Shown here in pieces: positions 4,767 through 15,202 of a stretch of 26,750 nucleotides of DNA. Position 1 is the stretch's first letter. Every line of letters begins with the position of its first letter. Position numbers and translations under genes: made by a program. Origin of the DNA: a virus (taxonomy: Duplodnaviria > Heunggongvirae > Uroviricota > Caudoviricetes); IMG/VR virus record IMGVR_UViG_2529293065_000012, one strand, 5' to 3'. Below the pieces are notes generated by a model. It ran no database searches. It was not told where the DNA came from and saw only the letters and a program-made list of their open reading frames with translations.

Positions 4767-5132
4767 ATGATTCTCGCCAACGACTTTCTTGAATACCTGC
4801 TCAACACAGAACGTGATCTTGCCGCTCGCGTGCGTGATCGTTATGACATGTACCTGAAATCCCTGCCTGTACCGCAGCTCGCTGACGGAAAGATTGTTAT
4901 TGATGGTCGCTACATGATTGACAGCCACGAGGGAAATTACAGGCTTTACCGCATTGAAGGTGGCACCCCGTCCGTTATTGGCATTTACCAGCGCCCATCC
5001 TCTGCAATCGTCGATGTGATTGCCGACAGCATCCGCATCACACATCGCCATGCCGACACAGAAGACACCGTGCTGGAAATTCAGCGGCTGGCTACAGTCT
5101 GCCGCGACACCCTGAATGGCATGTCGAAGTAA
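4767..5132 (+). CDS. Hypothetical protein immediately upstream of A (121 aa)
   Basis: An AAGAGGA SD lies upstream. The ORF ends 6 nt before the A start. No family was recognised. Confidence 0.65.
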   Translation: MILANDFLEYLLNTERDLAARVRDRYDMYLKSLPVPQLADGKIVIDGRYMIDSHEGNYRLYRIEGGTPSVIGIYQRPSSAIVDVIADSIRITHRHADTEDTVLEIQRLATVCRDTLNGMSK

Positions 5133-5138
5133 ATCACT

Positions 5139-7946
5139 ATGACGGCAGAGTACATCAGGGACTGGCAACAACCGCGCCACGCAGTGGGGCGTGAAGGAAC
5201 GGGGATCCCCGCTCCTGAATCCGCGCTTTCCTCCTGGCTGGATGCCTACCGGGTAGAGAACGAGCGCTGCCAGGAAATGGCTGATGCGGCGTTCTCCGCA
5301 ACGCCGCTGGGCAACCTGATTAATAAAAGCCTGGACGCACAGGAAAAACAGGACAAAACCATCACACTGGCAGGAGACGCCAGAAAACAGGCACGCGGCG
5401 CGGTGGATGAAGCCATGGCTTCGCTGCGCCTGCTGCCGTCCTATCTGCGCGATCCGCTTATTCGCCCCCTCTCCTTCCTGCGCAAAAAACAGGAAGCCGA
5501 TCGTCAGAAAGGCAAAAAGAGCTGGCAGGCTGAACGCTACGCGCGCGGAAACCTGCGCAAAATATTCGAACGTCTGGAGCGCACCGATCACCGCTGGCTG
5601 ACACAGGGTTATCGCTCCCTTGCCGGACGCGAACGCCTGGATGATTTGCTTTACCTGCCGCAGCTCAACCAGCACCAGATACAGACGCTGGCCACCATGA
5701 CGGCGGCGATGTTCAGCAGCACCTTCGAAAAACTCTGCGATGGCTTTGGCGCGACCGATGGCGAACTGACCATGGATGTAACGCTGAAGGCGTATCAGAT
5801 GCTGGCCCGCATGGGGTTACACCTGCACGCCATGCCGCCACATTACGAAGCTCTGAACAAGAGCGATCCGGATACGGAACTGTTACCGGGCGCAATCCTT
5901 CGCCTGACCTGTGCGGAATGGTGGAAACGCAAACTGTGGCTGTTACGTTGCGAGTGGCGGGAAGAACAACTCCGCGCCGCCTGTCTGGTTTCCAGAAAAA
6001 CATCGCCCTATCTGAGCCAGGACGCGTTAAGCGAGTTTCGCGCACAGCGCGAGAAAACACGCGATTTCCTGAAAAGTTTCATGCTGGAAAACGAAGACGG
6101 GTTCACGATTGATCTCGAGACAGTGTATTACGCGGGAGTAAGTAACCCGGTTCACCGTAAGGCAGAAATGATGGCCACCATGAAGGGGCTGGAACTTCTG
6201 GCCGAAGCCCGTGGCGACAAAGCGGTGTTTCTGACCATCACCTGCCCGTCAAAATACCACGCCACAACAGAGAACGGTCATCCGAATCCCAAATGGAACG
6301 GGGCCACCATGCGCGACTCCAGCGATTACCTGGTTAACACGTTTTTTGCGGCGGTCCGCAAGAAACTGAACCGCGACGGCCTGCGCTGGTATGGCATCCG
6401 CACGGTGGAGCCTCACCATGACGGCACCGTGCACTGGCATATGATGGTCTTTGCTCATCCGGAAGAAATCGACACCATTGTGTCCCACACCCGCGATATT
6501 GCCATTCAGGAAGATCGTCACGAGCTGGGTGATGATATTACCCCACGCTTTAAGGCGGAGTACGTCGACGGCTCAAAAGGCACGCCAACCAGCTACATCG
6601 CCACCTACATCGGAAAGAACCTGGACAGCCGCGCCGTAGATGGCATCGACCCGAAAACGGGCAAGCCACGCGTTGACCACGAAACCGGAAAATCAATGGC
6701 CGAGAGCGTGGAACGCGCCATCGGCTGGGCGCGCCTTCACCGTGTCCGCCAGTTCCAGTTCTTTGGTATCCCCTCCCGTCAGGTGTGGCGTGAACTCCGC
6801 CGCCTTGCCAGCCAGATGGCACGCAACCCGGAAGGCCCGCAACGGCTGAAGGATGACGCAATGGATGCGGTACTCGCTGCCGCTGATGCCGGATGTTTTG
6901 CCACCTACATAGAGAAACAGGGCGGCGTACTTGTTCCACGCCAAGACTACCTGATTCGCACCGCCTACGACCTCGCAGATGAGCTGAACGATTACGGCGA
7001 ACAGAGCGTACAGATTTACGGGATCTGGTCGCCGCTCATCGGGGAGTCTTCCCGCGTATGCACGCATCCGGATAACTGGAAGCTGGTAAGACGCAAACCG
7101 GAAGCGGAAGACAGCTCCCACGAAAATGGTTTTGACCTTCAGGGCGGCCCTGCCGCCCCTTGGACTCGTGGCAATAACTGTCCCCGTGTACAGGAAACGG
7201 ACAACAACGGGACAGAACAGCCGGAAGAACGGCCAGCACCGTGGCCGCAGCTTCCTGACGGCGTTGACGTGAATGAATGGATGCGCTCACTGAAACGGCA
7301 CGAACGCCGGGCGCTGATGCGTTCGCTGCGTGACAAACAGGCAAAAAACAGCAGTGATGAAATGCAGAACTGGACACAGAGCCGCAAACAGCCACAGCCT
7401 TTGCCTGATAACCACGAGTTACTCGCTAAAGAATGGCGGGAGTCTGCTGAATCTCTCGGCCTGCATATCGGTGAACAGCAGATGCAGCACCTGTTACGGG
7501 GCGGCAGTCTGTACGTTGACGGCAGCATCATTGCACCGCAGGGATTTGAAATTGTACGCAAACCGGATACCCGCCCGGACAGCCGAATCACGCAGCTCTG
7601 GCAACGCCTGAGTCGTAATCACGGCGTAAGCAGCACGGAGATCCGCCATAACCCGGTCGCCAGCTATCTGGAACAACTAGAGGCATCAGACCCTGAAGCC
7701 GCCGCACGCCTGGCATCCACACTTCAGCAAGACCAGAACACCATGAAAACACCAGTTACCGTACTTTCTGACATGCTGCGCGCCATCCGCGACGCAGAGC
7801 ACGCACAGAGAATCAGTGAAACCACTGAACGCGCCCGCCGCAAAGCAGACCTGCTGCGGGGTGGCCTGAGCAGTGGAAACAAAAAACAGACAAAAACGGG
7901 ATTCACAAATCCCGTAAATGAGCAAAAAACGCGCCGCGATATATGA
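5139..7946 (+). CDS. A: Rolling-circle replication initiation endonuclease (P2 gpA family), 935 aa with a long C-terminal tail
   Basis: FLTITCPSKYH, VEPHHDGTVHWHMMVF (HUH-type metal motif) and YIATYIGKN (paired catalytic Tyr) parallel P2 A FITLTCPSKYH, VEPHHDGTPHWHMMLF and YIAKYISKN. The start codon is uncertain because the SD is weak. Confidence 0.9.
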   Translation: MTAEYIRDWQQPRHAVGREGTGIPAPESALSSWLDAYRVENERCQEMADAAFSATPLGNLINKSLDAQEKQDKTITLAGDARKQARGAVDEAMASLRLLPSYLRDPLIRPLSFLRKKQEADRQKGKKSWQAERYARGNLRKIFERLERTDHRWLTQGYRSLAGRERLDDLLYLPQLNQHQIQTLATMTAAMFSSTFEKLCDGFGATDGELTMDVTLKAYQMLARMGLHLHAMPPHYEALNKSDPDTELLPGAILRLTCAEWWKRKLWLLRCEWREEQLRAACLVSRKTSPYLSQDALSEFRAQREKTRDFLKSFMLENEDGFTIDLETVYYAGVSNPVHRKAEMMATMKGLELLAEARGDKAVFLTITCPSKYHATTENGHPNPKWNGATMRDSSDYLVNTFFAAVRKKLNRDGLRWYGIRTVEPHHDGTVHWHMMVFAHPEEIDTIVSHTRDIAIQEDRHELGDDITPRFKAEYVDGSKGTPTSYIATYIGKNLDSRAVDGIDPKTGKPRVDHETGKSMAESVERAIGWARLHRVRQFQFFGIPSRQVWRELRRLASQMARNPEGPQRLKDDAMDAVLAAADAGCFATYIEKQGGVLVPRQDYLIRTAYDLADELNDYGEQSVQIYGIWSPLIGESSRVCTHPDNWKLVRRKPEAEDSSHENGFDLQGGPAAPWTRGNNCPRVQETDNNGTEQPEERPAPWPQLPDGVDVNEWMRSLKRHERRALMRSLRDKQAKNSSDEMQNWTQSRKQPQPLPDNHELLAKEWRESAESLGLHIGEQQMQHLLRGGSLYVDGSIIAPQGFEIVRKPDTRPDSRITQLWQRLSRNHGVSSTEIRHNPVASYLEQLEASDPEAAARLASTLQQDQNTMKTPVTVLSDMLRAIRDAEHAQRISETTERARRKADLLRGGLSSGNKKQTKTGFTNPVNEQKTRRDI
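7892..7919. repeat. Copy 1 of a 28-bp direct repeat containing the 20-bp palindrome ACGGGATT-CACA-AATCCCGT
   Basis: The palindrome lies at 7896-7915, inside the last codons of A. It is repeated 73 bp downstream. Confidence 0.8.
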
Positions 7947-7964
7947 AGCGCGCACAAAACAGGC

Positions 7965-7992
7965 GAAAACGGGATTTAAAAATCCCGTAAAC
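7965..7992. promoter_or_regulatory. Copy 2 of the palindrome (ACGGGATT-TAAA-AATCCCGT); candidate parC / ParR operator upstream of parM
   Basis: The palindrome lies at 7969-7988, about 35 bp upstream of the parM ATG. It overlaps a -35-like TTTAAA (7975-7980) that is followed by an AT-rich -10-like region. Confidence 0.4.
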
Positions 7993-8022
7993 GATTAATT
8001 AATCAACATAAGGAAAAGCTAC

Positions 8023-8982
8023 ATGAAAATTTGTATCGACGACGGCTCCACCAACATCAAGCTGGCATGGACTGAGAACGGCGAATGCCGCAACGCCATC
8101 AGCCCGAACAGCTTCAAGTCGGAATGGTCTGCGCCGTTCGGTGTCACGCAGCCCGCGAACTACATGCTTGATGGCGTGCGCTATGGTTTTGATCCGGTCA
8201 GCGATCGCTTTGTCCAGACGACCGACACGCAATACCAGTACAGCGATGTGAATGTCATTGCCATTCATCACGCGCTGGTCAAATCAGGCATCACGCCACA
8301 GGAAGTGGATGTGGTTGTCACCCTGCCACTGAGCGAGTATTTCGACACAAACGCACAGCCGGATATGACCAACATCAACCGCAAAAAAGCGAACGTCATG
8401 CGCCCGGTGGAGTACCAGAACGGTGAGGCATTCACTATCCGTAACGTGCGGGTTATGCCTGAATCCATTCCGGCTGGCTTTAAGGCACTGGCTAACATGA
8501 GTCCGTTTGAATCCCTGCTGATTGTGGATTTAGGCGGAACCACGCTGGATGTGGCAAAGGTTCAGGGGCAACTGGCAGGTATCAGCCAGGTGTTTTGCGA
8601 TCCACACGTAGGCGTTTCTCTGATGGCCGATGCCGTACTGTCGGTGATGGCCACTAACGGTATGCGCACCAGTCACCACATCGCCAATACCATTATCGAA
8701 CATCGCCATGATGAAGCCTGGCTGCGCCAGCACATCCACAATGACGCGCATTACGCCAGCCTGATGGCGGTTATTCGTGAAAAGGAAGAAACACTGAAAC
8801 AACGCGTGATCCGCGCGCTGGCGGTTTTTTCGGGTTACGGGCGGGTGATGGTTGTCGGTGGCGGGGCGGAGATTGTGGCACCCGCTATCCGCGAAGCCTG
8901 CGGAGTTAATGCGACTTTCATCGCGGACGGGGTGCCACAGTTTGCTCTGGTTAATGGGCTGTACGCAATGGACAAGGAGTAA
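8023..8982 (+). CDS. parM: ParM/StbA actin-like plasmid segregation ATPase (319 aa)
   Basis: Colinear by eye with R1 ParM along the whole length: IDDGSTNIKL, ISPNSFK.EW, QYSDVNV.A.HHAL, RKKAN, VMPESIPAG, DSLLI.DLGGTTLD, GISK/Q, GVSL, FSGY..VMV.GGGAE, LVNG.Y. Confidence 0.9.
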   Translation: MKICIDDGSTNIKLAWTENGECRNAISPNSFKSEWSAPFGVTQPANYMLDGVRYGFDPVSDRFVQTTDTQYQYSDVNVIAIHHALVKSGITPQEVDVVVTLPLSEYFDTNAQPDMTNINRKKANVMRPVEYQNGEAFTIRNVRVMPESIPAGFKALANMSPFESLLIVDLGGTTLDVAKVQGQLAGISQVFCDPHVGVSLMADAVLSVMATNGMRTSHHIANTIIEHRHDEAWLRQHIHNDAHYASLMAVIREKEETLKQRVIRALAVFSGYGRVMVVGGGAEIVAPAIREACGVNATFIADGVPQFALVNGLYAMDKE

Positions 8983-8986
8983 ACCA

Positions 8987-9301
8987 ATGACGACATCAAC
9001 CAGACGGATAAGTTTCTATCTGAAGCCAGACGCCGTCAAGAGTGAACAAGAGGCGTGCAATTACCTCGATAGCCTGCCAGCCTCCGAACGCAGCCGCGCG
9101 CAACGCGCGGCCTTTCTGGCCGGACTGGCACTCATAAAACGCAACCCAGCATTTGCCTACTGGATGGCCGAATGGCCAGAGGATAACCTCCCCTTCAATA
9201 CCATTAGCACCAAGGAAACATACCAAGATAATCCGCCTAGCGGAATTGAATGCAATTTTTATAAAATAAAAAAGAATATTCAGACCTTATTCCCTGAATA
9301 A
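8987..9301 (+). CDS. parR: ParR/StbB-like centromere-binding adaptor (104 aa)
   Basis: RRISFYLKPD...LDSLPASERSRAQRAAFLAGLAL parallels R1 ParR RRTIAFKLNPD...LDSIPQGERSRLNRAALTAGLAL. The start was taken at the ATG at 8987, 5 nt after the parM stop, rather than the track start at 8852, which overlaps parM. Confidence 0.75.
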   Translation: MTTSTRRISFYLKPDAVKSEQEACNYLDSLPASERSRAQRAAFLAGLALIKRNPAFAYWMAEWPEDNLPFNTISTKETYQDNPPSGIECNFYKIKKNIQTLFPE

Positions 9302-9350
9302 TCTGATAATTGAATTTGAACTAATAAAACACATACCAACACATCATTCT

Positions 9351-9373
9351 GGCACCCTTGCTAACAGGGTGCC
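9351..9373. terminator. Hairpin between the convergent parR and 280-aa genes (no clear U-tract)
   Basis: GGCACCC (9351-9357) pairs with GGGTGCC (9367-9373) around a 9-nt loop. It sits between two converging stop codons. Confidence 0.35.
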
Positions 9374-9385
9374 AATGATTTCAAA

Positions 9386-10228
9386 TCATGATGAAATTGC
9401 CGAAGTTTTTTTATCGTGCTGAAGTACCGCAAATGCCATCAAAACCTCAAGAGAATAGCGGCGATAATACTTAACAAAACCATAATAAAATACTCGAGAT
9501 GCAGCAAGAAAAAACAAGAAAAGAGGACCAAAAGGTAACAATCTGATATTTATATCTATTAAGTAAGATAGAGGGGCTAGACACATAATCAACCAGACTG
9601 AGGCGAGAAAAACGAATGTAATGTTTCTACAAAAACCATATAGAGCAACATAGTTTTGTATTTTCAACTGATGATTTTTCGAATGTTCATACACATAATG
9701 ATAAGCAAGACGAAAAAGATCTCCCCTCAACCCTTTGCGTCGATACAACGTAGAAACAGAAAAATTATTTATATAGCCATTTCGTATTTGCGGCCAAAAG
9801 GCCTTAATAAGTATAGGATGTAGTGTGGTTTTATGACACTCAGCTTTATCAAGAATTGATACAGGAAACAAAAAAACTCTACGAATAAAATTAAATATCT
9901 GGAATCCTGTACCACGGCGTTTTATTTTCAGGGGGTTTTTCGGGGAAAACAGATAAGTCGAAGGATATCCAAGCTTACTGTTCATGTATTTTTCAATTAA
10001 ACAGGATGATAGAATAGATATGAAGTGACCTAAAATATATGATAGAACGATCAATGTCACATACATAAACACACTTATTATTTCTTTATATTTCAAGATG
10101 TGGTTTAGAATACTCTCGACATAACCAGGGTTAATTTCAATAGAAAACAAAAAAAGGATAAACAGGAATAATCCACCTGGAATTAGATACCCCAAAAAGT
10201 CATAAAATGAAAACGGATTCTGTGTCAC
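9386..10228 (-). CDS. Unknown polytopic membrane protein, about 4 TM helices with a central soluble region of about 120 aa (280 aa)
   Basis: A GTG start at 10228 is preceded by an AGGGGGAA SD. Hydrophobic segments are FLGYLIPGGLFLFILFLFSI, IISVFMYVTLIVLSYILGHFISIL, ITFVFLASVWLIMCLAPLSYLI and LLPFGPLFLFFLAASRVFYYGF. The region is AT-rich (19/60 G+C hand-counted at 9601-9660). No family was recognised. Confidence 0.75.
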   Translation of the reverse strand: MTQNPFSFYDFLGYLIPGGLFLFILFLFSIEINPGYVESILNHILKYKEIISVFMYVTLIVLSYILGHFISILSSCLIEKYMNSKLGYPSTYLFSPKNPLKIKRRGTGFQIFNFIRRVFLFPVSILDKAECHKTTLHPILIKAFWPQIRNGYINNFSVSTLYRRKGLRGDLFRLAYHYVYEHSKNHQLKIQNYVALYGFCRNITFVFLASVWLIMCLAPLSYLIDINIRLLPFGPLFLFFLAASRVFYYGFVKYYRRYSLEVLMAFAVLQHDKKTSAISS

Positions 10229-10267
10229 ACTTCCCCCTGTGCTACTTGTAAATTAAAGAGTCAAACA

Positions 10268-10765
10268 TTATTTGTTTTTCCGTAAAGGATTAGCTTTCCA
10301 TCTTCTTACTAACCATTCGAATTCTTGATATGTAGTATCCGAATTAATGCTTTCTCTGATTGCTTTAATTAATGGCTCGGCAATATCATATGTCTCTACA
10401 ACTGTTGTGTAAGATGTTCTTTTTATCATTTTTTCATCATAAATACCTTCACGAATACTTACAGCAACTCGCTCGTAAAAATTTAAAATATATTGAAATT
10501 TTCGACGCTCGGCCATTTCCTCATCTGTTATTGTACAACCATCACAAGGAAAAACATAAGAACGAAATGATTTGCCTGAACGATGCACTTGTTTCAGGGT
10601 ATGCAATGACTCTATATATTGCATATCTTGCCGACTCTCAAAAAGAAAGTTAGCCGTTTGAGTTTTCTTTGCGGTACGCACATTGTAGATAATGGTTCCA
10701 ATGGCAACCAAAACGCCAAGCAGAACAATAGCATTGCTGATGATTTGTAGTGTTATTGGGTTCAT
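10268..10765 (-). CDS. Unknown N-terminally anchored protein, 1 TM plus a helical domain, possibly DUF4760-like (165 aa)
   Basis: The N-terminal helix is ITLQIISNAIVLLGVLVAIGTIIYNV. The core ILNFYERVAVSIREGIYDEKMIK resembles what I remember of DUF4760, but this is unverified. It is the first gene of an AT-rich two-gene operon, 39 nt upstream of the 280-aa gene. Confidence 0.75.
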   Translation of the reverse strand: MNPITLQIISNAIVLLGVLVAIGTIIYNVRTAKKTQTANFLFESRQDMQYIESLHTLKQVHRSGKSFRSYVFPCDGCTITDEEMAERRKFQYILNFYERVAVSIREGIYDEKMIKRTSYTTVVETYDIAEPLIKAIRESINSDTTYQEFEWLVRRWKANPLRKNK

Positions 10766-10778
10766 CCTATTTCATCCA

Positions 10779-10807
10779 TAAAAAAGGCGGGGAGCAAATC
10801 CCCGCCT
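10779..10807 (-). terminator. Canonical intrinsic terminator on the minus strand, 14 nt upstream of the 165-aa gene start
   Basis: The minus strand reads AGGCGGGGA-TTTGC-TCCCCGCCT followed by TTTTTAT. This is a 9-bp GC-rich stem, a 5-nt loop and a U-run. No U-run occurs in the plus orientation. Confidence 0.7.
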
Positions 10808-10826
10808 CATTAGAGGTCAACGTAGC

Positions 10827-10862
10827 TTAGAAACCATCAAATTCATCATACATTTTTTTCAT
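10827..10862 (-). CDS. Candidate 11-codon leader ORF (MKKMYDEFDGF)
   Basis: The minus strand reads GAGGGGG-TTGAT-ATG, a strong SD with a 5-nt spacer. The stop lies 19 nt before the terminator stem. It is too short to judge from coding statistics. Confidence 0.3.
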   Translation of the reverse strand: MKKMYDEFDGF

Positions 10863-10885
10863 ATCAACCCCCTCATAGAAATCAT

Positions 10886-10902
10886 AACCACGTTTTGTGG
10901 TT
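10886..10902 (-). other. Small leader hairpin (AACCAC / GTGGTT) between the candidate promoter and the leader ORF
   Basis: A 6-bp stem with a 5-nt loop, seen directly in the sequence. Confidence 0.4.
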
Positions 10903-10914
10903 TTTGTGACGCAT

Positions 10915-10943
10915 AAACTACATCAAAGGCAAGCCACGGTCAA
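10915..10943 (-). promoter_or_regulatory. Sigma70-like promoter candidate for the cargo operon (TTGACC-17 nt-TAGTTT)
   Basis: On the minus strand the -35 TTGACC lies at 10943-10938 and the -10 TAGTTT at 10920-10915, with an exact 17-nt spacer. The predicted TSS is near 10908, about 128 nt upstream of the terminator U-run. Confidence 0.4.
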
Positions 10944-10962
10944 ATATATAGGCATGCTTACC

Positions 10963-10989
10963 TGCACAAAAGTGCACAAATTTGCACAA
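10963..10989. repeat. Three TGCACAA motifs with exact 10-bp phasing
   Basis: TGCACAA occurs at 10963-10969, 10973-10979 and 10983-10989 (minus strand TTGTGCA x3). The repeats lie between the cargo promoter candidate and the cos candidate. Confidence 0.6.
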
Positions 10990-11020
10990 TTTTTTTGAAC
11001 GACTTTTTGCCCTTCCGGCC

Positions 11021-11039
11021 CGCGTGGCGGCTGGAGCCG
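11021..11039 (+). other. Candidate cos cohesive-end core
   Basis: CGCGTGGCGGCTGGAGCCG partly matches the remembered 19-nt cohesive ends of 186 (GGCGTGGCGGGGAAAGCAT) and P2 (GGCGAGGCGGGGAAAGCAC), sharing the GCGTGGCGG core. Its position and orientation relative to Q are as in P2. Confidence 0.3.
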
Positions 11040-11059
11040 TCAAGGATCCGTGCATGCAC

Positions 11060-11083
11060 AAAAAAACGCGCTTTTTCTGCGCG
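11060..11083 (-). terminator. Minus-strand terminator-like hairpin with a T7 run downstream of Q
   Basis: The minus strand reads GCGCG-AGAAAAA-CGCGC followed by TTTTTTT. The stem is a short 5 bp, all G-C. Confidence 0.4.
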
Positions 11084-11362
11084 CAGGTGACGGGGGAACA
11101 GCCCGCGTTTCAGGGGGTAAATAGCATCCCCTGAACGATGTCGCAGCGACACAACAGAATGGCTGTATTTCTCACGCTGAGCGTGAAGAATACGTGAGGG
11201 ATTCTGATTTGATGGGGTGAAAGGTAAGGCCGTCAAAATCGCACTGAGGCGGCGAGAACATGCAGTCAACGCGGTGGGATTGCGTAAGAGTCTGACCGTC
11301 GATGGTGGCGATAAACTGGAAGGCGTCGTGAAATTATCTGACTGATACAGGAGCTGGAGAGT

Positions 11363-11387
11363 CGGGGCATAAATTTTTTATGCCCCG
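11363..11387 (-). terminator. Hairpin 26 nt downstream of the Q stop
   Basis: CGGGGCATAAA / TTTATGCCCCG form palindromic 11-nt arms. No separate U-tract follows on the minus strand. Confidence 0.4.
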
Positions 11388-11413
11388 GCGAAGCAGCAGA
11401 CAAGCGAAGCGCG

Positions 11414-12460
11414 TCAGGATGTGGGCAGGGTGTCTAACAGTGCGTAAGGGTTAAAGCGGATCACCTCTTCGCCAAGCCAGTCATTGATGTGCTTCATGGC
11501 CTCCATGACGGGCATCAGCTCGTTAATTGCGTAAACCCGCGCGGCCTTCTCCACATCACCAAACGCACTTTTTTCACCCGGCATCGCCCCCATCAGTTGC
11601 GGCGGAACGCGGTGCGCAGCCAGCACATCATCACGGGATGCCGCCTTAACATTCATGAACTCATCCTTTGCGGTGATCTGCTGGAACGGCAAAATTTGCA
11701 CCCCCTCTTTGCCCCCGTTGGGCGCATGAATGAGCACGTTTTTAAACGCACCACCACCACGCGCACCCTGTAGCGTTTCTTTCAGGGAGTCCATGCTTTC
11801 GCGGTTTACCTGCGCTGCACCGATGTAGATGATGCACCCGGCGTGGGATCCGTTGTCGTAATACAGTTTTCTGAACATGTCCGCCGAATGAGACAGGCTG
11901 GCCGAGAGTAATGCGCCGAGATATTCCGGCATGCCGTAGATTTCCTGGTTAATGTCCGGATTCATCAGGTGGCACACTTTGCCTGGGCGAAACTGAAACG
12001 CATCCTTGCCATCCTGCACATACCACCATGATTCAAGATCGCTTCCGCGTCGCATGTATTTCGCCAGGGCGTGCCGTAATTTAAGCGGTTCGCCGAGCAT
12101 ATTGCTTCGAAGCTCAAGGAATGCGTTACCGAACACAAACCAGTCCAGCGCCAGCGCCGAGAAATCCTGCCGGGAAAGCAGCGGGTGCGGGATGTAGCAA
12201 CCGAGCAATACATTGCGCTTAAAGTAAAGCGCAGACTGATGCCAGGACGTTTGCCGGGCGGCTCTTGCCAGACCGTACCAGTCCACCGGGGTTTCATACC
12301 ACCGCCCGTTATCAGCACAGTACATATTGTCCAGCAGGTCATGCCCGGTCAGGCGATAAGGACCATCAAATGTGAATGCACTGAGCGATGATTCTTTCCT
12401 GAGCGCATCAGCGAGATCAATGCGTGAACTCATGCGCACTTTTTTATTTTTTCTGCTCAT
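11414..12460 (-). CDS. Q: Portal protein (P2 gpQ family, 348 aa)
   Basis: NGRWYE, FVFGNAFLE, NPDINQEIYGMPEYLGAL, FKNVLIHAP, HRVPPQLMG and GWLGEEVIRF parallel P2 Q. The start overlaps the P stop (ATGA). Confidence 0.92.
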   Translation of the reverse strand: MSRKNKKVRMSSRIDLADALRKESSLSAFTFDGPYRLTGHDLLDNMYCADNGRWYETPVDWYGLARAARQTSWHQSALYFKRNVLLGCYIPHPLLSRQDFSALALDWFVFGNAFLELRSNMLGEPLKLRHALAKYMRRGSDLESWWYVQDGKDAFQFRPGKVCHLMNPDINQEIYGMPEYLGALLSASLSHSADMFRKLYYDNGSHAGCIIYIGAAQVNRESMDSLKETLQGARGGGAFKNVLIHAPNGGKEGVQILPFQQITAKDEFMNVKAASRDDVLAAHRVPPQLMGAMPGEKSAFGDVEKAARVYAINELMPVMEAMKHINDWLGEEVIRFNPYALLDTLPTS

Positions 12461-14211
12461 CAGAACTCCATAACCGTGAAACGCTCGTTTTCTCCTTCGC
12501 CGCCAATTGGTTCGTTAATGACAGCAAGCATGGTTGCCCACGCAAGGTCGCCGTGGCTGATCCCCCTCGCGCGGTCCGTTTCGTAAGTGATAAAGCCGCC
12601 CGGTGTTTTCACCTTACGCACGGCGTTAAAGGCCGCGACCAGCTCGCGTTCGGCGCGATCGTATTCCCACCGCCCGGCACGCATTATTTGCAGCATTTTC
12701 AGTACCAGCGACCGTTTTGATGACAGCGTGAAGGTGTACGGAATAGCGGCAGGGAAAAACCGTTTCACTATCTGATAAACAGCCTCCCCGTTCCCGCCCG
12801 TCACATCAATGCCGATGTGTTCCACGTTGTAGCGACACGTGAACTCTTCAATGACTCTGGCCTGTTCTTCAAACTCCAGCCCCTGAACGCGTCGCGTCTC
12901 CACCGTTCGAAAACGGCCACCAGGAACAGACGGAGGAACCACCACGGACACAGCGCCGCTGTCGCCGTTGCCACTGCTGCCGTTTGCGTCATACCCAATC
13001 CATACCGGACGATTCCCCATCGGGCGGGGAGCAAAAGGTTTCCAGTCTTTCCAGTCGTCGTATCCGTCAACGCCACAGCCAATCAGGATATTCAGGTTAA
13101 ATGCCGATTCCCCTTCGCGGACAAACTCACACATATAGAGATTGAGGAACTCGTCTTCGGTGTTTTCATCACGAATTTCATCAATATCGGTGTGTTTCCA
13201 GCCGTGATTAACCACATCTTCCAGCGTGACAATTTGCCGCCACGTCCGGTCAGGGCAGATAAGCCCGTTATGCAGCGTTTTCCAGTCCACAGAAAAACGC
13301 TGGCGTTTATGCGAGGCCTTTTTCTCGTTCCAGCGGTCGCCGTTCCAGTAGGCGTATGCCTCGTGCGTTTCGGTGGATGGCGTGGAGAAGTAGGTGCGCC
13401 GCAGTCCGCTGAGGGTTGCCATAGCGCCAGCCACCTTGCGCAGTTCAGCAAAGCGACTGACCCAGAAAAATTCATCAAAATAAAAATTGCCCGTATAGGA
13501 CTGTGCCGACGCAGCAGAAGTGCCGAGAAAATGCAGCTCTGCGCCGTTGGAGAGGATGATTTTATCGCCCCCTTTCAGCTCCACATCAACTTCAGCCGCG
13601 GCCTTCTGAATAATGCTTTTAAACTGGAACGCCTGACGACGCGACGCAGACAAAAAAATCTGGTTACGCTGGTAAGGTTGCGCCACATCGTCACGCAGCG
13701 CCATCAGCAGTGCTTCCTGTGCAAAATACCAGGTCGCCCCAATCTGTCGGGATTTCAGGATCATCCTGTTACGTATCCCGGCTTCCCTGCAAAGGGTCAG
13801 GGAGTCAAACCAGCCCCGCTGATGCCACTCCAGCCTGCTGATGATTTTTTCCCGCAGTGCGGCAATCTGTTCCGGCGTGAAATGATTTTTGAGTTTTTTC
13901 GCCCGGCCTTTCTTTCCTGTGGCCGTCGCATCCGGCTGGCCATCATGCAGTTTTTTAAGCTGCCGGGTCAGCAGGTCTATTTCCTTGAAGTCACCACCTG
14001 TTTTATTCTGTTTTTCAGTGAGCTGGATGAGGCGCGCATCGATGGACTGCGTGACACGCTGCACGGGTGGCGTTTCATCCCACTGGTCGCGTTTTTTCCA
14101 CGCATAAATCGTGTTCGGGTTTATTCCCATCAGACGTGATATTTCTGCGGGCGGATAACCCTGCCAGTAAAGTTGCCGCGCACGCTGGCGCACAAAAGCG
14201 TCCTGAATCAT
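12460..14211 (-). CDS. P: Terminase large (ATPase) subunit (P2 gpP family, 583 aa)
   Basis: It has an N-terminal HTH-like segment (YPPAEISRLMGINPNTIYAWKKRDQWD) and a Walker-A-like ILKSRQIGATWYFAQEA. Its position and orientation next to Q are as in P2. Confidence 0.9.
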   Translation of the reverse strand: MIQDAFVRQRARQLYWQGYPPAEISRLMGINPNTIYAWKKRDQWDETPPVQRVTQSIDARLIQLTEKQNKTGGDFKEIDLLTRQLKKLHDGQPDATATGKKGRAKKLKNHFTPEQIAALREKIISRLEWHQRGWFDSLTLCREAGIRNRMILKSRQIGATWYFAQEALLMALRDDVAQPYQRNQIFLSASRRQAFQFKSIIQKAAAEVDVELKGGDKIILSNGAELHFLGTSAASAQSYTGNFYFDEFFWVSRFAELRKVAGAMATLSGLRRTYFSTPSTETHEAYAYWNGDRWNEKKASHKRQRFSVDWKTLHNGLICPDRTWRQIVTLEDVVNHGWKHTDIDEIRDENTEDEFLNLYMCEFVREGESAFNLNILIGCGVDGYDDWKDWKPFAPRPMGNRPVWIGYDANGSSGNGDSGAVSVVVPPSVPGGRFRTVETRRVQGLEFEEQARVIEEFTCRYNVEHIGIDVTGGNGEAVYQIVKRFFPAAIPYTFTLSSKRSLVLKMLQIMRAGRWEYDRAERELVAAFNAVRKVKTPGGFITYETDRARGISHGDLAWATMLAVINEPIGGEGENERFTVMEF

Positions 14212-14365
14212 TGCTCCCCCTGAGTAATTACAGGAAGATTACCCGCGCGCGAAACCGTTCTCCTTAACCCCCTGTTCTGGCCGTTTTCTTACAACAAAAG
14301 CCCTTTGTATCAGCCTGTTACGCTTTGCCATCATGACTGAAGAACCAGTCAGAGGGGCAAAAACT

Positions 14366-15202
14366 ATGGCTAATGAAAAAAAGACATCCCGCAAAAAGTT
14401 TCGCGTGGCTGTCTCCGGATCAACTGTTGATGGCCGCGAAATCAGCCCGGTACATCTGCGTGAAGCCGCCGAGAACTTCAACCCGGATGTTTACGCTGCC
14501 CGCGTGAACGTTGAGCACTATCTCTCGCCATGCCCGTCAAGCGAATTTTCCGCAATGGGCGATGTCACCGCGCTGAGTACGGAAGATATTACGGAAGGCC
14601 CGCTGGCCGGACGTACTGCGCTGTATGCAGAAATCGAACCGACCGAGCGCATGAAGCAGCTTGTCGCTGACGGCAAGAAAATCTATTCCAGTATCGAACT
14701 GCACCCGCAGTTCTCCGTTAACGGGCGTGCCTATCTGGTCGGACTGGCGATGACCGACACCCCGGCAAGCCTGGGCACTGAGCGCCTGAAATTCACGGCA
14801 CAGCAGCGTCAGGCGGTGATGACGTTCAACAGTATCCAGGGTGAAGCACCGCTTATCTCCGAAGCCATCGAGTCTGAAATCATCGAAATGGCAGAACAAC
14901 GCCAGGAAGAAGGCACCCAGTGGTTTAACCGCGTAATGGGGATTATTGGTCGTGGCCGCAAAGCGGATGACGCCAGTTTCTCCCGTATTCAGGAAGCGGT
15001 GGAAGGCGTTGCAACGTCACAGGCCGACATTATCGACCGTTTTAATGTGCTGGAAACCCGCCATCAGCAGGACCGCCAGAAAATCACGTCACTGACCACA
15101 GAGCTGACAGCACTGAAGGAAAAACTGCGCACGCAGGACGGCGATCCGCAGAACCGCTTCACCGCAACGGGCGCAGCCTCCGACCAGCTGGCTGACTTCT
15201 GA
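14366..15202 (+). CDS. O: Capsid scaffold protein (P2 gpO family, 278 aa)
   Basis: KKFRVAVSGSTVDGREIS...NVEH...YSSIELHPQF...YLVGLAMTDTPASLGTE parallels P2 O. The start was chosen at the ATG at 14366, with an AGAGGGG SD 8 nt upstream. Confidence 0.88.
   Translation: MANEKKTSRKKFRVAVSGSTVDGREISPVHLREAAENFNPDVYAARVNVEHYLSPCPSSEFSAMGDVTALSTEDITEGPLAGRTALYAEIEPTERMKQLVADGKKIYSSIELHPQFSVNGRAYLVGLAMTDTPASLGTERLKFTAQQRQAVMTFNSIQGEAPLISEAIESEIIEMAEQRQEEGTQWFNRVMGIIGRGRKADDASFSRIQEAVEGVATSQADIIDRFNVLETRHQQDRQKITSLTTELTALKEKLRTQDGDPQNRFTATGAASDQLADF

Follow-up and report, generated by a model that had tools for sequence, protein, structure and literature searches.

The subject of this report is the interval between the replication gene gpA and the portal gene Q in a window of 26,750 nucleotides (nt), i.e., the whole stretch of the virus record IMGVR_UViG_2529293065_000012. 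On the minus strand of this interval, a gene of the DUF4760 family is preceded by an unannotated micro-ORF (ORF, open reading frame). The value of the locus is in this micropeptide-DUF4760 unit and in the predicted fold of DUF4760, which resembles the EP domain of the plant EDS1 family. The window is a P88-like phage region (genus Xuanwuvirus, family Peduoviridae) that also matches many E. coli chromosomes: 1,727 of the 1,729 places matching the window region are chromosomal, and the nearest match to 7947-11413 is E. coli O111:H8 strain 9662 (98.7%).

Layout of the interval between gpA and Q

Four annotated ORFs are found between gpA and Q (Table 1). They form two convergent modules, parM with parR on the plus strand and two AT-rich membrane-protein genes on the minus strand, the latter encoding DUF4760 and a protein with four transmembrane (TM) helices. 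The modules meet at the hairpin 9351-9373, which is likely a bidirectional terminator. The initial annotation, made from the sequence alone, had placed these four genes here and had assigned the minus-strand module a promoter-like sequence and a leader of its own; both readings stand, as the promoter was found and the leader is structured. The GC content is 0.32-0.39 across 9200-10900 against ~0.55 on either flank.

The minus strand carries, in this order, the promoter, a 5' hairpin, the Shine-Dalgarno (SD) sequence with the micro-ORF, a terminator, the AUGGAUGAAA box, DUF4760, a 39-nt spacer, the four-TM gene and the hairpin. These genes form a single transcription unit here; neither a terminator nor a convincing promoter was seen in the spacer. 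At two other loci (L061 and L100), DUF4760 is followed by its own terminator instead.

Table 1. Features of the interval and of its neighbourhood, in window coordinates (aa, amino acids; bp, base pairs)
Feature	Position	Strand	Remarks
gpA	5139-7946	+	935 aa, PF05840; left neighbour of the interval
Candidate parC/promoter region	7900-7994		22-nt direct repeats 7900-7921 and 7973-7994, flanking the gpA stop, upstream of parM
parM	8023-8982	+	319 aa, actin-like partition ATPase; Pfam StbA_N 9e-82, ParM C-terminal 6e-69; phrog_691 partition protein
parR/StbB adaptor	8987-9301	+	104 aa; Pfam PF10784 Plasmid_stab_B 3e-29; phrog_2515; pB171 StbB 2JD3, E 0.006
Variable slot	9185-10962		no nucleotide homology to phage P88 (blastn); left edge within the parR linker
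GC hairpin GGCACCCT-TGCTAAC-AGGGTGCC	9351-9373		between the convergent parR and four-TM genes; sequence read directly
Four-TM inner-membrane protein (predicted)	9386-10228	-	280 aa, GTG start; phrog_12528 1e-68, uncharacterised family
DUF4760	10268-10765	-	165 aa; Pfam PF15956 1e-34; phrog_2284
Conserved AUGGAUGAAA box	10770-10779	-	directly after the U-tract; CAUGGAGAG in Pseudomonas phage D14E
Intrinsic terminator (predicted)	10780-10808	-	10-bp GC stem, 5-nt loop, U-tract; between the micro-ORF and DUF4760
GACCUC element (anti-SD-like)	10813-10818	-	complementary to the micro-ORF SD; conserved in closer relatives only; pairing by inspection
Stem-loop around the last sense codon and stop of the micro-ORF	10823-10836	-	4-bp stem, UUYUAA loop
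Micro-ORF MKKMYDEFDGF*	10827-10862	-	11 codons and stop; fifth gene, unannotated
SD of the micro-ORF, GAGGGGG	10868-10874	-	strong
5' leader stem-loop AACCAC-AAAAC-GUGGUU	10886-10902	-	structure kept, sequence different at other loci (by inspection)
Sigma-70-type promoter TTGACC-17 nt-TAGTTT	10915-10943	-	inside the variable slot; 20 nt separate it from the right edge of the slot
Conserved cos-proximal backbone	10963-11413		96% identical to P88; TGCACAA repeats, hairpin; predicted cos region by synteny
Perfect 11-bp inverted repeat CGGGGCATAAA / TTTATGCCCCG	11363-11387		directly downstream of portal gene Q
Portal Q	11414-12460	-	right neighbour of the interval
Terminase P	12460-14211	-	beyond Q

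The micro-ORF, its leader and the membrane proteins

The nucleotide similarity among DUF4760 loci reaches ~100-110 nt upstream of the start codon regardless of the genomic context. A micro-ORF is present within 230 nt upstream of DUF4760 in 82 of 86 loci, as counted with a motif written post hoc; among the small ORFs elsewhere in all loci, the motif is borne by 2 others of 10,428. The combination of the micro-ORF and DUF4760 ranges over Enterobacterales, Pasteurellaceae, Pseudomonas, Acinetobacter and Alteromonas phages, and Rhodovulum. Four loci are exceptions: an insertion destroyed the leader in L038, the stop codon is lost and the peptide extended in L017, a longer peptide ends in DENDGF in L087, and the peptide is MKDVIGGF in L092. 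In the viral contig L038 (4740-5000), foreign DNA displaces the promoter and the micro-ORF up to the terminator loop, and DUF4760 is left without a leader.

The codon-position pattern of the segment DEFDGF indicates selection on the peptide. The 37 unique leaders that encode this segment contain 15 distinct 21-mers; none of the 12 first and second codon positions differs among them, and each of the 6 third positions does. DEFDGF is kept where the identity of DUF4760 is only 38-44%. Its counterparts are DEFEWV, DEYDWF and EEFDGF in other Enterobacterales, EEYEGI in Pseudomonas phage D14E, NEGWDF in Acinetobacter phage BUCTT20, DGWDDI in Alteromonas phage P24, and NEGWGG in Rhodovulum. In Pasteurellaceae the counterpart is NEGWDGF and its stop codon overlaps the ATG of DUF4760 (TAATG); the terminator, where present, is located upstream of both the micro-ORF and DUF4760. 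Judging from this conservation, we consider the micro-ORF to be a genuine gene and the conserved unit to be the micro-ORF with DUF4760, not DUF4760 with the four-TM gene. The micro-ORF is absent from every annotation inspected, and no description of the micropeptide-DUF4760 unit or of the EP-like fold was found in the literature searched.

The promoter motif (TTGACY / TAnTTT) is conserved in an alignment of 17 loci. The MAFFT/RNAalifold consensus of the leader is poor because the hairpins vary in sequence and length; for this reason, the stem at the stop codon was evaluated by pair counts anchored at the stop, and the terminators by folding of individual sequences. The stop-codon stem, which RNAalifold finds as well, is paired in 119 of 140 cells (85%) versus 23-57 (16-41%) in slid registers. 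Its outer pair is CG in 15 cases, UA in 9 and AU in 3, and the covariation extends into synonymous sites of the micro-ORF. A hairpin with a U-run separates the micro-ORF from DUF4760 in all 49 unique leaders of the enterobacterial type; its stems are many and fully compensated. The only match of the Rfam scan of 7800-11600 (E up to 1) was a chance-level one of SorX to the terminator. The AUGGAUGAAA box probably holds a weak ribosome-binding site of DUF4760. The leader layout of three loci of the Pasteurellaceae type (L025, L093 and L094) differs from the enterobacterial one: a conserved GATTAGTGACAGTAATC-like hairpin and then a terminator are found ~60-150 nt upstream of the micro-ORF.

Classical ribosome-mediated attenuation is suggested by the order of leader ORF and terminator, and we considered this mechanism. 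The predictions do not support it: in 13 diverse leaders the terminator probability is 0.94-1.00 both with a free micro-ORF and with one covered by a ribosome (at the start, at the stop or throughout), constrained folding of the same leaders gave no antiterminator alternative, i.e., no mutually exclusive structure, and the ORF follows the terminator in Pasteurellaceae-type loci. The layout in Pasteurellaceae and the unchanged terminator under masking make the peptide a better candidate for a partner of DUF4760 than for a plain attenuator leader. Thus, the predictions favour a fixed, dose-setting terminator and a partner peptide, and a classical attenuator is less likely.

At the N-terminus of DUF4760 is a TM helix (residues 8-26); basic residues and then an all-alpha domain come after it, as judged from hydropathy and charges, and this domain is probably cytoplasmic. 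At 50% identity, the family comprises 2,659 clusters with E no higher than 1e-3; most of the 150 best-scoring members listed have a length of 150-200 aa. The AlphaFold2 model is a confident one, with a pLDDT of 92. In Foldseek, chains of the EDS1 family (EP domains of plant EDS1, PAD4 and SAG101) reach a TM-score of 0.48-0.59 and all others at most 0.31; the E values of 0.18-2.3 are not significant. The DUF4760 profile retrieved nothing from the PDB sequences at E up to 10, and the Pfam scan gave DUF4760 alone. Therefore, the model supports a resemblance to the EP domain at the fold level only, any homology being putative. A relationship between DUF4760 and the 1TM component of the AC1 system Rst_2TM_1TM_TIR (2TM+1TM+TIR), a validated system, was also considered and rejected (hhalign probability 0.3%); no homologue of the AC1 TIR protein was found in the flanks of any DUF4760 locus. 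In the literature searched, DUF4760 turned up in a single paper, which is unrelated.

DUF4760 is also found without the four-TM gene at this cos-proximal position, in P2-like phages of Pectobacterium, Xenorhabdus, Kluyvera, Dryocola and others; these include the P88-like phages L061 and L062 and Citrobacter phage phiSM, in which it has a terminator of its own. Its neighbour is cI in Pseudomonas phage D14E; in Acinetobacter and Alteromonas phages, it lies beside the integrase. The cos-proximal hotspot, where it occurs in dozens of P2-like phages, and the cI-side and integrase-side sites are typical of lysogen-expressed accessory genes.

In the four-TM protein, both termini and a basic central loop of ~100 residues (net charge +13) are on the predicted cytoplasmic side (hydropathy, charge). 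Its AlphaFold2 model, of moderate quality only (pLDDT 71), gave no informative match in the fold search, and its profile retrieved only a spurious growth-hormone match from the PDB sequences. Homologues with 43-46% identity occur by themselves in a lambdoid prophage (close to lexA/dinF) and beside the integrase of Klebsiella phage P7641. We rejected the interpretation that DUF4760 and the four-TM gene are obligate partners, since they are never adjacent in 28 loci of other species and 61 viral contigs, except for the E. coli P88-like prophages L036-L044. The two-gene membrane operon of the initial annotation is thus correct as a single unit at this locus, but the pair is not conserved beyond these prophages, and the comparison of loci indicates that the four-TM gene is a local add-on.

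The alleles of the two genes differ in their distribution. The DUF4760 cassette is at least 99% identical in 271 of the 289 E. coli genomes having it, and beside this near-uniform cassette the four-TM gene is a sharp mosaic patch. The four-TM allele of the window is rare, with a match of at least 99% in 2 of 289 genomes and ~89.7% nucleotide identity in the other 287. Between the alleles, dS is 0.30 and omega is 0.25, the divergence peaks at 9866-9965 in the central cytoplasmic loop, and dN/dS gives no sign of diversifying selection.

Backbone, variable slot and partition genes

The blastn homology to phage P88 (locus L001) is confined to 7801-9184 and 10963-11600. The relatives keep the order gpA, parM, parR, cargo, Q; the cargo alone is exchanged. 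In P88, the slot between parR and Q contains a ClpX-zinc-finger gene and small ORFs; in related E. coli prophages (L102-L105), it contains an AAA ATPase with an S8 peptidase, a DUF3800 pseudogene, a helix-turn-helix protein with a PIN protein, or a ClpX-zinc-finger gene with an XF1762-family gene. An IS421 element occupies the slot in three strains (H23-H25). The flanks are matched by ~1,454-1,464 complete E. coli records, and ~1,454 of the ~1,464 flank-holding records have parM/parR; the DUF4760 cassette and the four-TM gene are present in 289 genomes each. We assign parM and parR to the backbone because they are constant across the P88-like lineage while the cargo to their right varies.

The initial annotation had taken all of 7947-11413 as an accessory island in a P2 setting. 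The phage is P88-like rather than P2 proper, and the island as drawn is too wide: 9185-10962 is indeed exchanged among close relatives, as expected of variable accessory content, but parM and parR belong to the lineage backbone and have a confident non-defence annotation, and for these two genes the initial annotation is thus refuted on the terms that it had set itself. The proposed synteny stands for gpA on the left and for Q and P on the right (ORFs, Pfam); cos is placed by synteny only. The proposed position in a hotspot is correct, as the interval is within the gpA-gpQ locus of P2-like phages that was defined as a hotspot by Rousset et al. 2022 (PMC9122126). The exact gene arrangement of the interval is already given in Table S5A of that paper, whose pipeline counts StbA and Plasmid_stab_B as hotspot content; the locus as such is therefore not new.

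The parM product aligns over its full length (residues 2-316 of 319) with the structures of R1 ParM (1MWK/1MWM; E 1e-92), which together with the Pfam domains bears out the initial description of an R1-like pair, and it is 97-99% identical in P88 and relatives. The parR of the window is a second allele with a conserved N-terminal domain and a divergent AT-rich linker; its C-terminal tip is NIQTLFPE, and the form common to the two alleles is NI(Q/R)(T/A)LFPE. The linker differs from that of the P88 allele; hence, the left recombination joint is placed inside parR. From this allele comparison, the cargo seems to have come in with a foreign parR tail (9185-9301). The candidate parC repeats share exact 12-nt AAATCCCGTAAA cores at 7907-7918 and 7980-7991 (repeat and pattern search) and occur in two copies only; R1 parC has ten iterons. 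Together, parM, parR and the candidate parC are a ParMRC-type partition cassette of the P88-like backbone. Its role may be plasmid-like maintenance, as suggested in PMC9122126, where about a quarter of P2-like phages are stated to have a putative partition system, or positioning of replicating phage DNA, as described for AlpC of the prophage actin-like system AlpAC (CGP3; PMC4446434).

The cohesive-end 19-mer of P2/P4, GGCGAGGCGGGGAAAGCAC, has no match in 10963-11413 with up to five mismatches allowed; if the synteny is a guide, the cos of the present lineage must differ from the P2/P4 sequence. On the backbone side of the right cargo edge, three tandem TGCACAA direct repeats (10963-10995) are followed by one more (11052-11063), and a motif resembling them is present in a Kluyvera locus (L009). 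They may be protein-binding sites near cos. The inverted repeat 11363-11387 likely terminates the late P-Q transcript. In gpA, the Pfam GPA domain spans only residues 179-498, leaving a long C-terminal remainder without a domain call.

Possible function and relation to known systems

PADLOC (PADLOC-DB 2.0) gave no match for ParM, ParR or DUF4760 among the proteins of the interval. It gave a weak partial match of Csx27 to the four-TM protein (E 4e-5, 22 bits, residues 6-79, the first TM hairpin); otherwise Pfam, NCBIfam and PADLOC together showed nothing beyond ParM/ParR and DUF4760. The initial impression that the proteins bear no likeness to known defence proteins was thus sound, as PADLOC finds no defence family. 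It is the location that points to a defence function of the cargo: validated anti-phage systems abound in the hotspot (PMC9122126 and PMC13586616), although it also holds non-defence cargo (partition systems and a cytolethal distending toxin; PMC9122126).

Our tentative proposal, which we believe falls somewhat short of being probable, is that DUF4760 may be a membrane effector of the toxin-antitoxin or abortive-infection type guarded by the peptide. It is based on the architecture, on the genomic position (the hotspot, or the vicinity of cI or integrase) and on the usual hotspot cargo. The cassette brings its own sigma-70 promoter, and its transcript would begin with a protective 5' hairpin. 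The strong ribosome-binding site would drive synthesis of the acidic 11-residue peptide MKKMYDEFDGF; the strong intrinsic terminator is next, and only read-through RNA would reach DUF4760 with its weak ribosome-binding site and, here, the four-TM gene. An excess of the upstream product is expected because a strong SD serves the micro-ORF and either a terminator or the TAATG overlap precedes DUF4760. The peptide, in large excess, and DUF4760 would then constitute a two-component module in which the peptide holds the membrane-anchored DUF4760 inactive in an antitoxin-like manner, maybe by filling a basic cavity in the helical domain that resembles EP. Since peptides of this size do not last long, anything that shuts off host-driven expression, for example a superinfecting phage taking over or the element being lost, would free DUF4760 to disturb the inner membrane, possibly with the four-TM protein. 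The prophage would benefit through exclusion or abortive infection, or through post-segregational killing.

Several points weigh against this proposal. PADLOC has no matching model for DUF4760, and the arrangement is absent from the tested-system tables S2A/S2B of Rousset 2022 (PMC9122126). The binding of the peptide to DUF4760 is something that we purely infer, and we know of no precedent for an 11-residue antitoxin. The four-TM gene is paired with DUF4760 in a single E. coli lineage only. DUF4760 also occurs at apparently ordinary chromosomal sites with housekeeping neighbours in several genera, where no defence neighbours were noticed. Thermodynamic folding leaves room for kinetic or factor-dependent antitermination, and conserved C-terminal residues followed by the stop codon, with a hairpin at the stop, are also expected of a ribosome-arrest peptide.

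The last point leads to a possible, if less favoured, explanation: the micro-ORF may be a cis-acting arrest leader, with the ribosome stalling on ...DEFDGF at the stop codon in response to a signal (translation stress or a small molecule) and thereby setting the read-through or the downstream initiation; DUF4760 would then be inducible and the free peptide functionless. TnaC and antibiotic-sensing leader peptides are known leaders of the arrest type and serve as precedents. The order of leader ORF, intrinsic terminator and gene is as expected, the conservation is the strongest in the last six residues and the stop codon, the covarying stem exposes the stop codon in its loop, and the anti-SD-like element is just downstream. 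At the same time, there is no alternative antiterminator pairing; the terminator probability in the 13 leaders is the same under masking; the stop codon is ~21 nt ahead of the hairpin, outside the ribosome footprint; the motif is still kept in the Pasteurellaceae type, where the terminator is upstream or absent and the ORFs overlap; and the last residues are variable (F, V, I, L, Y, G, N) with no proline.

It is unlikely that DUF4760, the four-TM protein or both provide constitutive superinfection exclusion, blocking DNA entry like HK97 gp15 or P22 SieA, with no toxin logic and with a leader that keeps expression low. Both are predicted to be small inner-membrane proteins, both are encoded by stand-alone accessory genes at lysogen-expressed positions in many temperate phages, and the hotspot is known for exclusion genes such as old and tin (PMC9122126). 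However, by the positive-inside rule most of DUF4760 would lie in the cytoplasm, which is ill-suited to a block of entry in the periplasm, DUF4760 is also found at non-prophage chromosomal sites, and the family-wide micro-ORF would be left unexplained.

We would give little weight to cargo with no anti-phage role, i.e., neutral or host-adaptive genes (membrane homeostasis, lysogenic conversion) in a recombination-prone slot. The lack of a defence-family match, the housekeeping neighbourhoods of DUF4760 and the non-defence cargo known from the hotspot agree with it. On the other side are the persistence of the family at moron positions of many temperate phages, the elaborate conserved leader, which argues for a selected and tightly dosed function, the purifying selection on the four-TM gene (omega 0.25), and the high validation rates for unknown genes at P4 hotspots reported in PMC13586616. 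Finally, all four annotated genes do lie between gpA and gpQ, the published pipeline counts the partition domains as hotspot content and P2 itself has no parMR, but a single accessory island including parMR is hardly credible, as parMR is fixed in the P88-like lineage while the cargo on its right is exchanged, the P88 homology covers parM and two thirds of parR, and the parMR side is found in ~1,454 E. coli records against 289 for the cargo.

A bolder version of the peptide-guarded effector is that DUF4760 is a membrane-anchored bacterial relative of the plant EDS1-family EP domain, a phage-borne immune effector or sensor gated by the coupled micropeptide (9-21 residues, with the consensus E-(G)-aromatic-(D/E)-(G/W)-hydrophobic at the stop codon). 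With the structural model as its source, we regard this version as quite doubtful. To our knowledge, the EP domain is regarded as plant-specific; if the similarity of the fold reflected common ancestry, bacterial genes carried by phages would be linked to a plant immune signalling domain, a kind of link already made for TIR and NLR-like proteins. A peptide-gated EP-like DUF4760 would, if true, be a new two-component defence or addiction module and the first prokaryotic counterpart of the EP domain. Should none of the readings be right, what is left is an ordinary hotspot arrangement that has been catalogued before. Two points concern annotation practice. For P88-like prophages, an abundant branch of the P2 family, the exchangeable slot extends from parR to cos, and searches for new defence systems should mask the partition genes. 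DUF4760, a large family across temperate phages of Proteobacteria, is half of a conserved two-gene unit, the other half of which has been missed; the micro-ORF exemplifies a functional micro-gene concealed in a 5' leader.

Among known systems, the gpA-gpQ hotspot of Rousset 2022 (the old/tin slot) has the same position, and related prophages carry different cargo in it; here, only the part from parR to cos varies, and the cargo is no validated or named system. The partition cassette shares with ParMRC (type II) of plasmid R1 the full-length ParM, an adaptor of the StbB/ParR family, the order parM-parR and the upstream repeats; it differs in belonging to an integrated P2-family prophage and in having a candidate centromere only. 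The likeness of the four-TM protein to Csx27 of type VI-B CRISPR-Cas is in the weak match to the first TM hairpin and in the four-TM topology, which Csx27 also has; the match is limited to the residues given above and may reflect TM composition, and no cas genes were seen in 5000-14500 of the window. Compared with the EP domain of EDS1, PAD4 and SAG101, which is joined to an N-terminal lipase-like domain and works with TIR-derived nucleotides, DUF4760 has a TM anchor and lacks the lipase-like domain, no TIR gene is near, and no sequence similarity was detected.

Leader-peptide attenuators (trpL, TnaC and antibiotic-responsive leaders) have in common with the present leader a short ORF in a structured 5' region ahead of an intrinsic terminator; here, there is no antiterminator, the peptide is conserved across orders, and the ORF is sometimes past the terminator and overlaps the main gene. 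Toxin-antitoxin and abortive-infection modules with a terminator between the products (ToxIN of type III) or with the antitoxin gene first (type II) differ in that their upstream product is a repeat RNA or a folded protein and not an 11-residue peptide; the downstream DUF4760 is predicted to be membrane-anchored and helical, has no nuclease or kinase features, and its toxicity is putative. The likeness is in the architecture, which favours the small upstream product while a terminator or translational coupling limits the downstream one, and in the cassette itself, which is small, self-contained, mobile and phage-borne.

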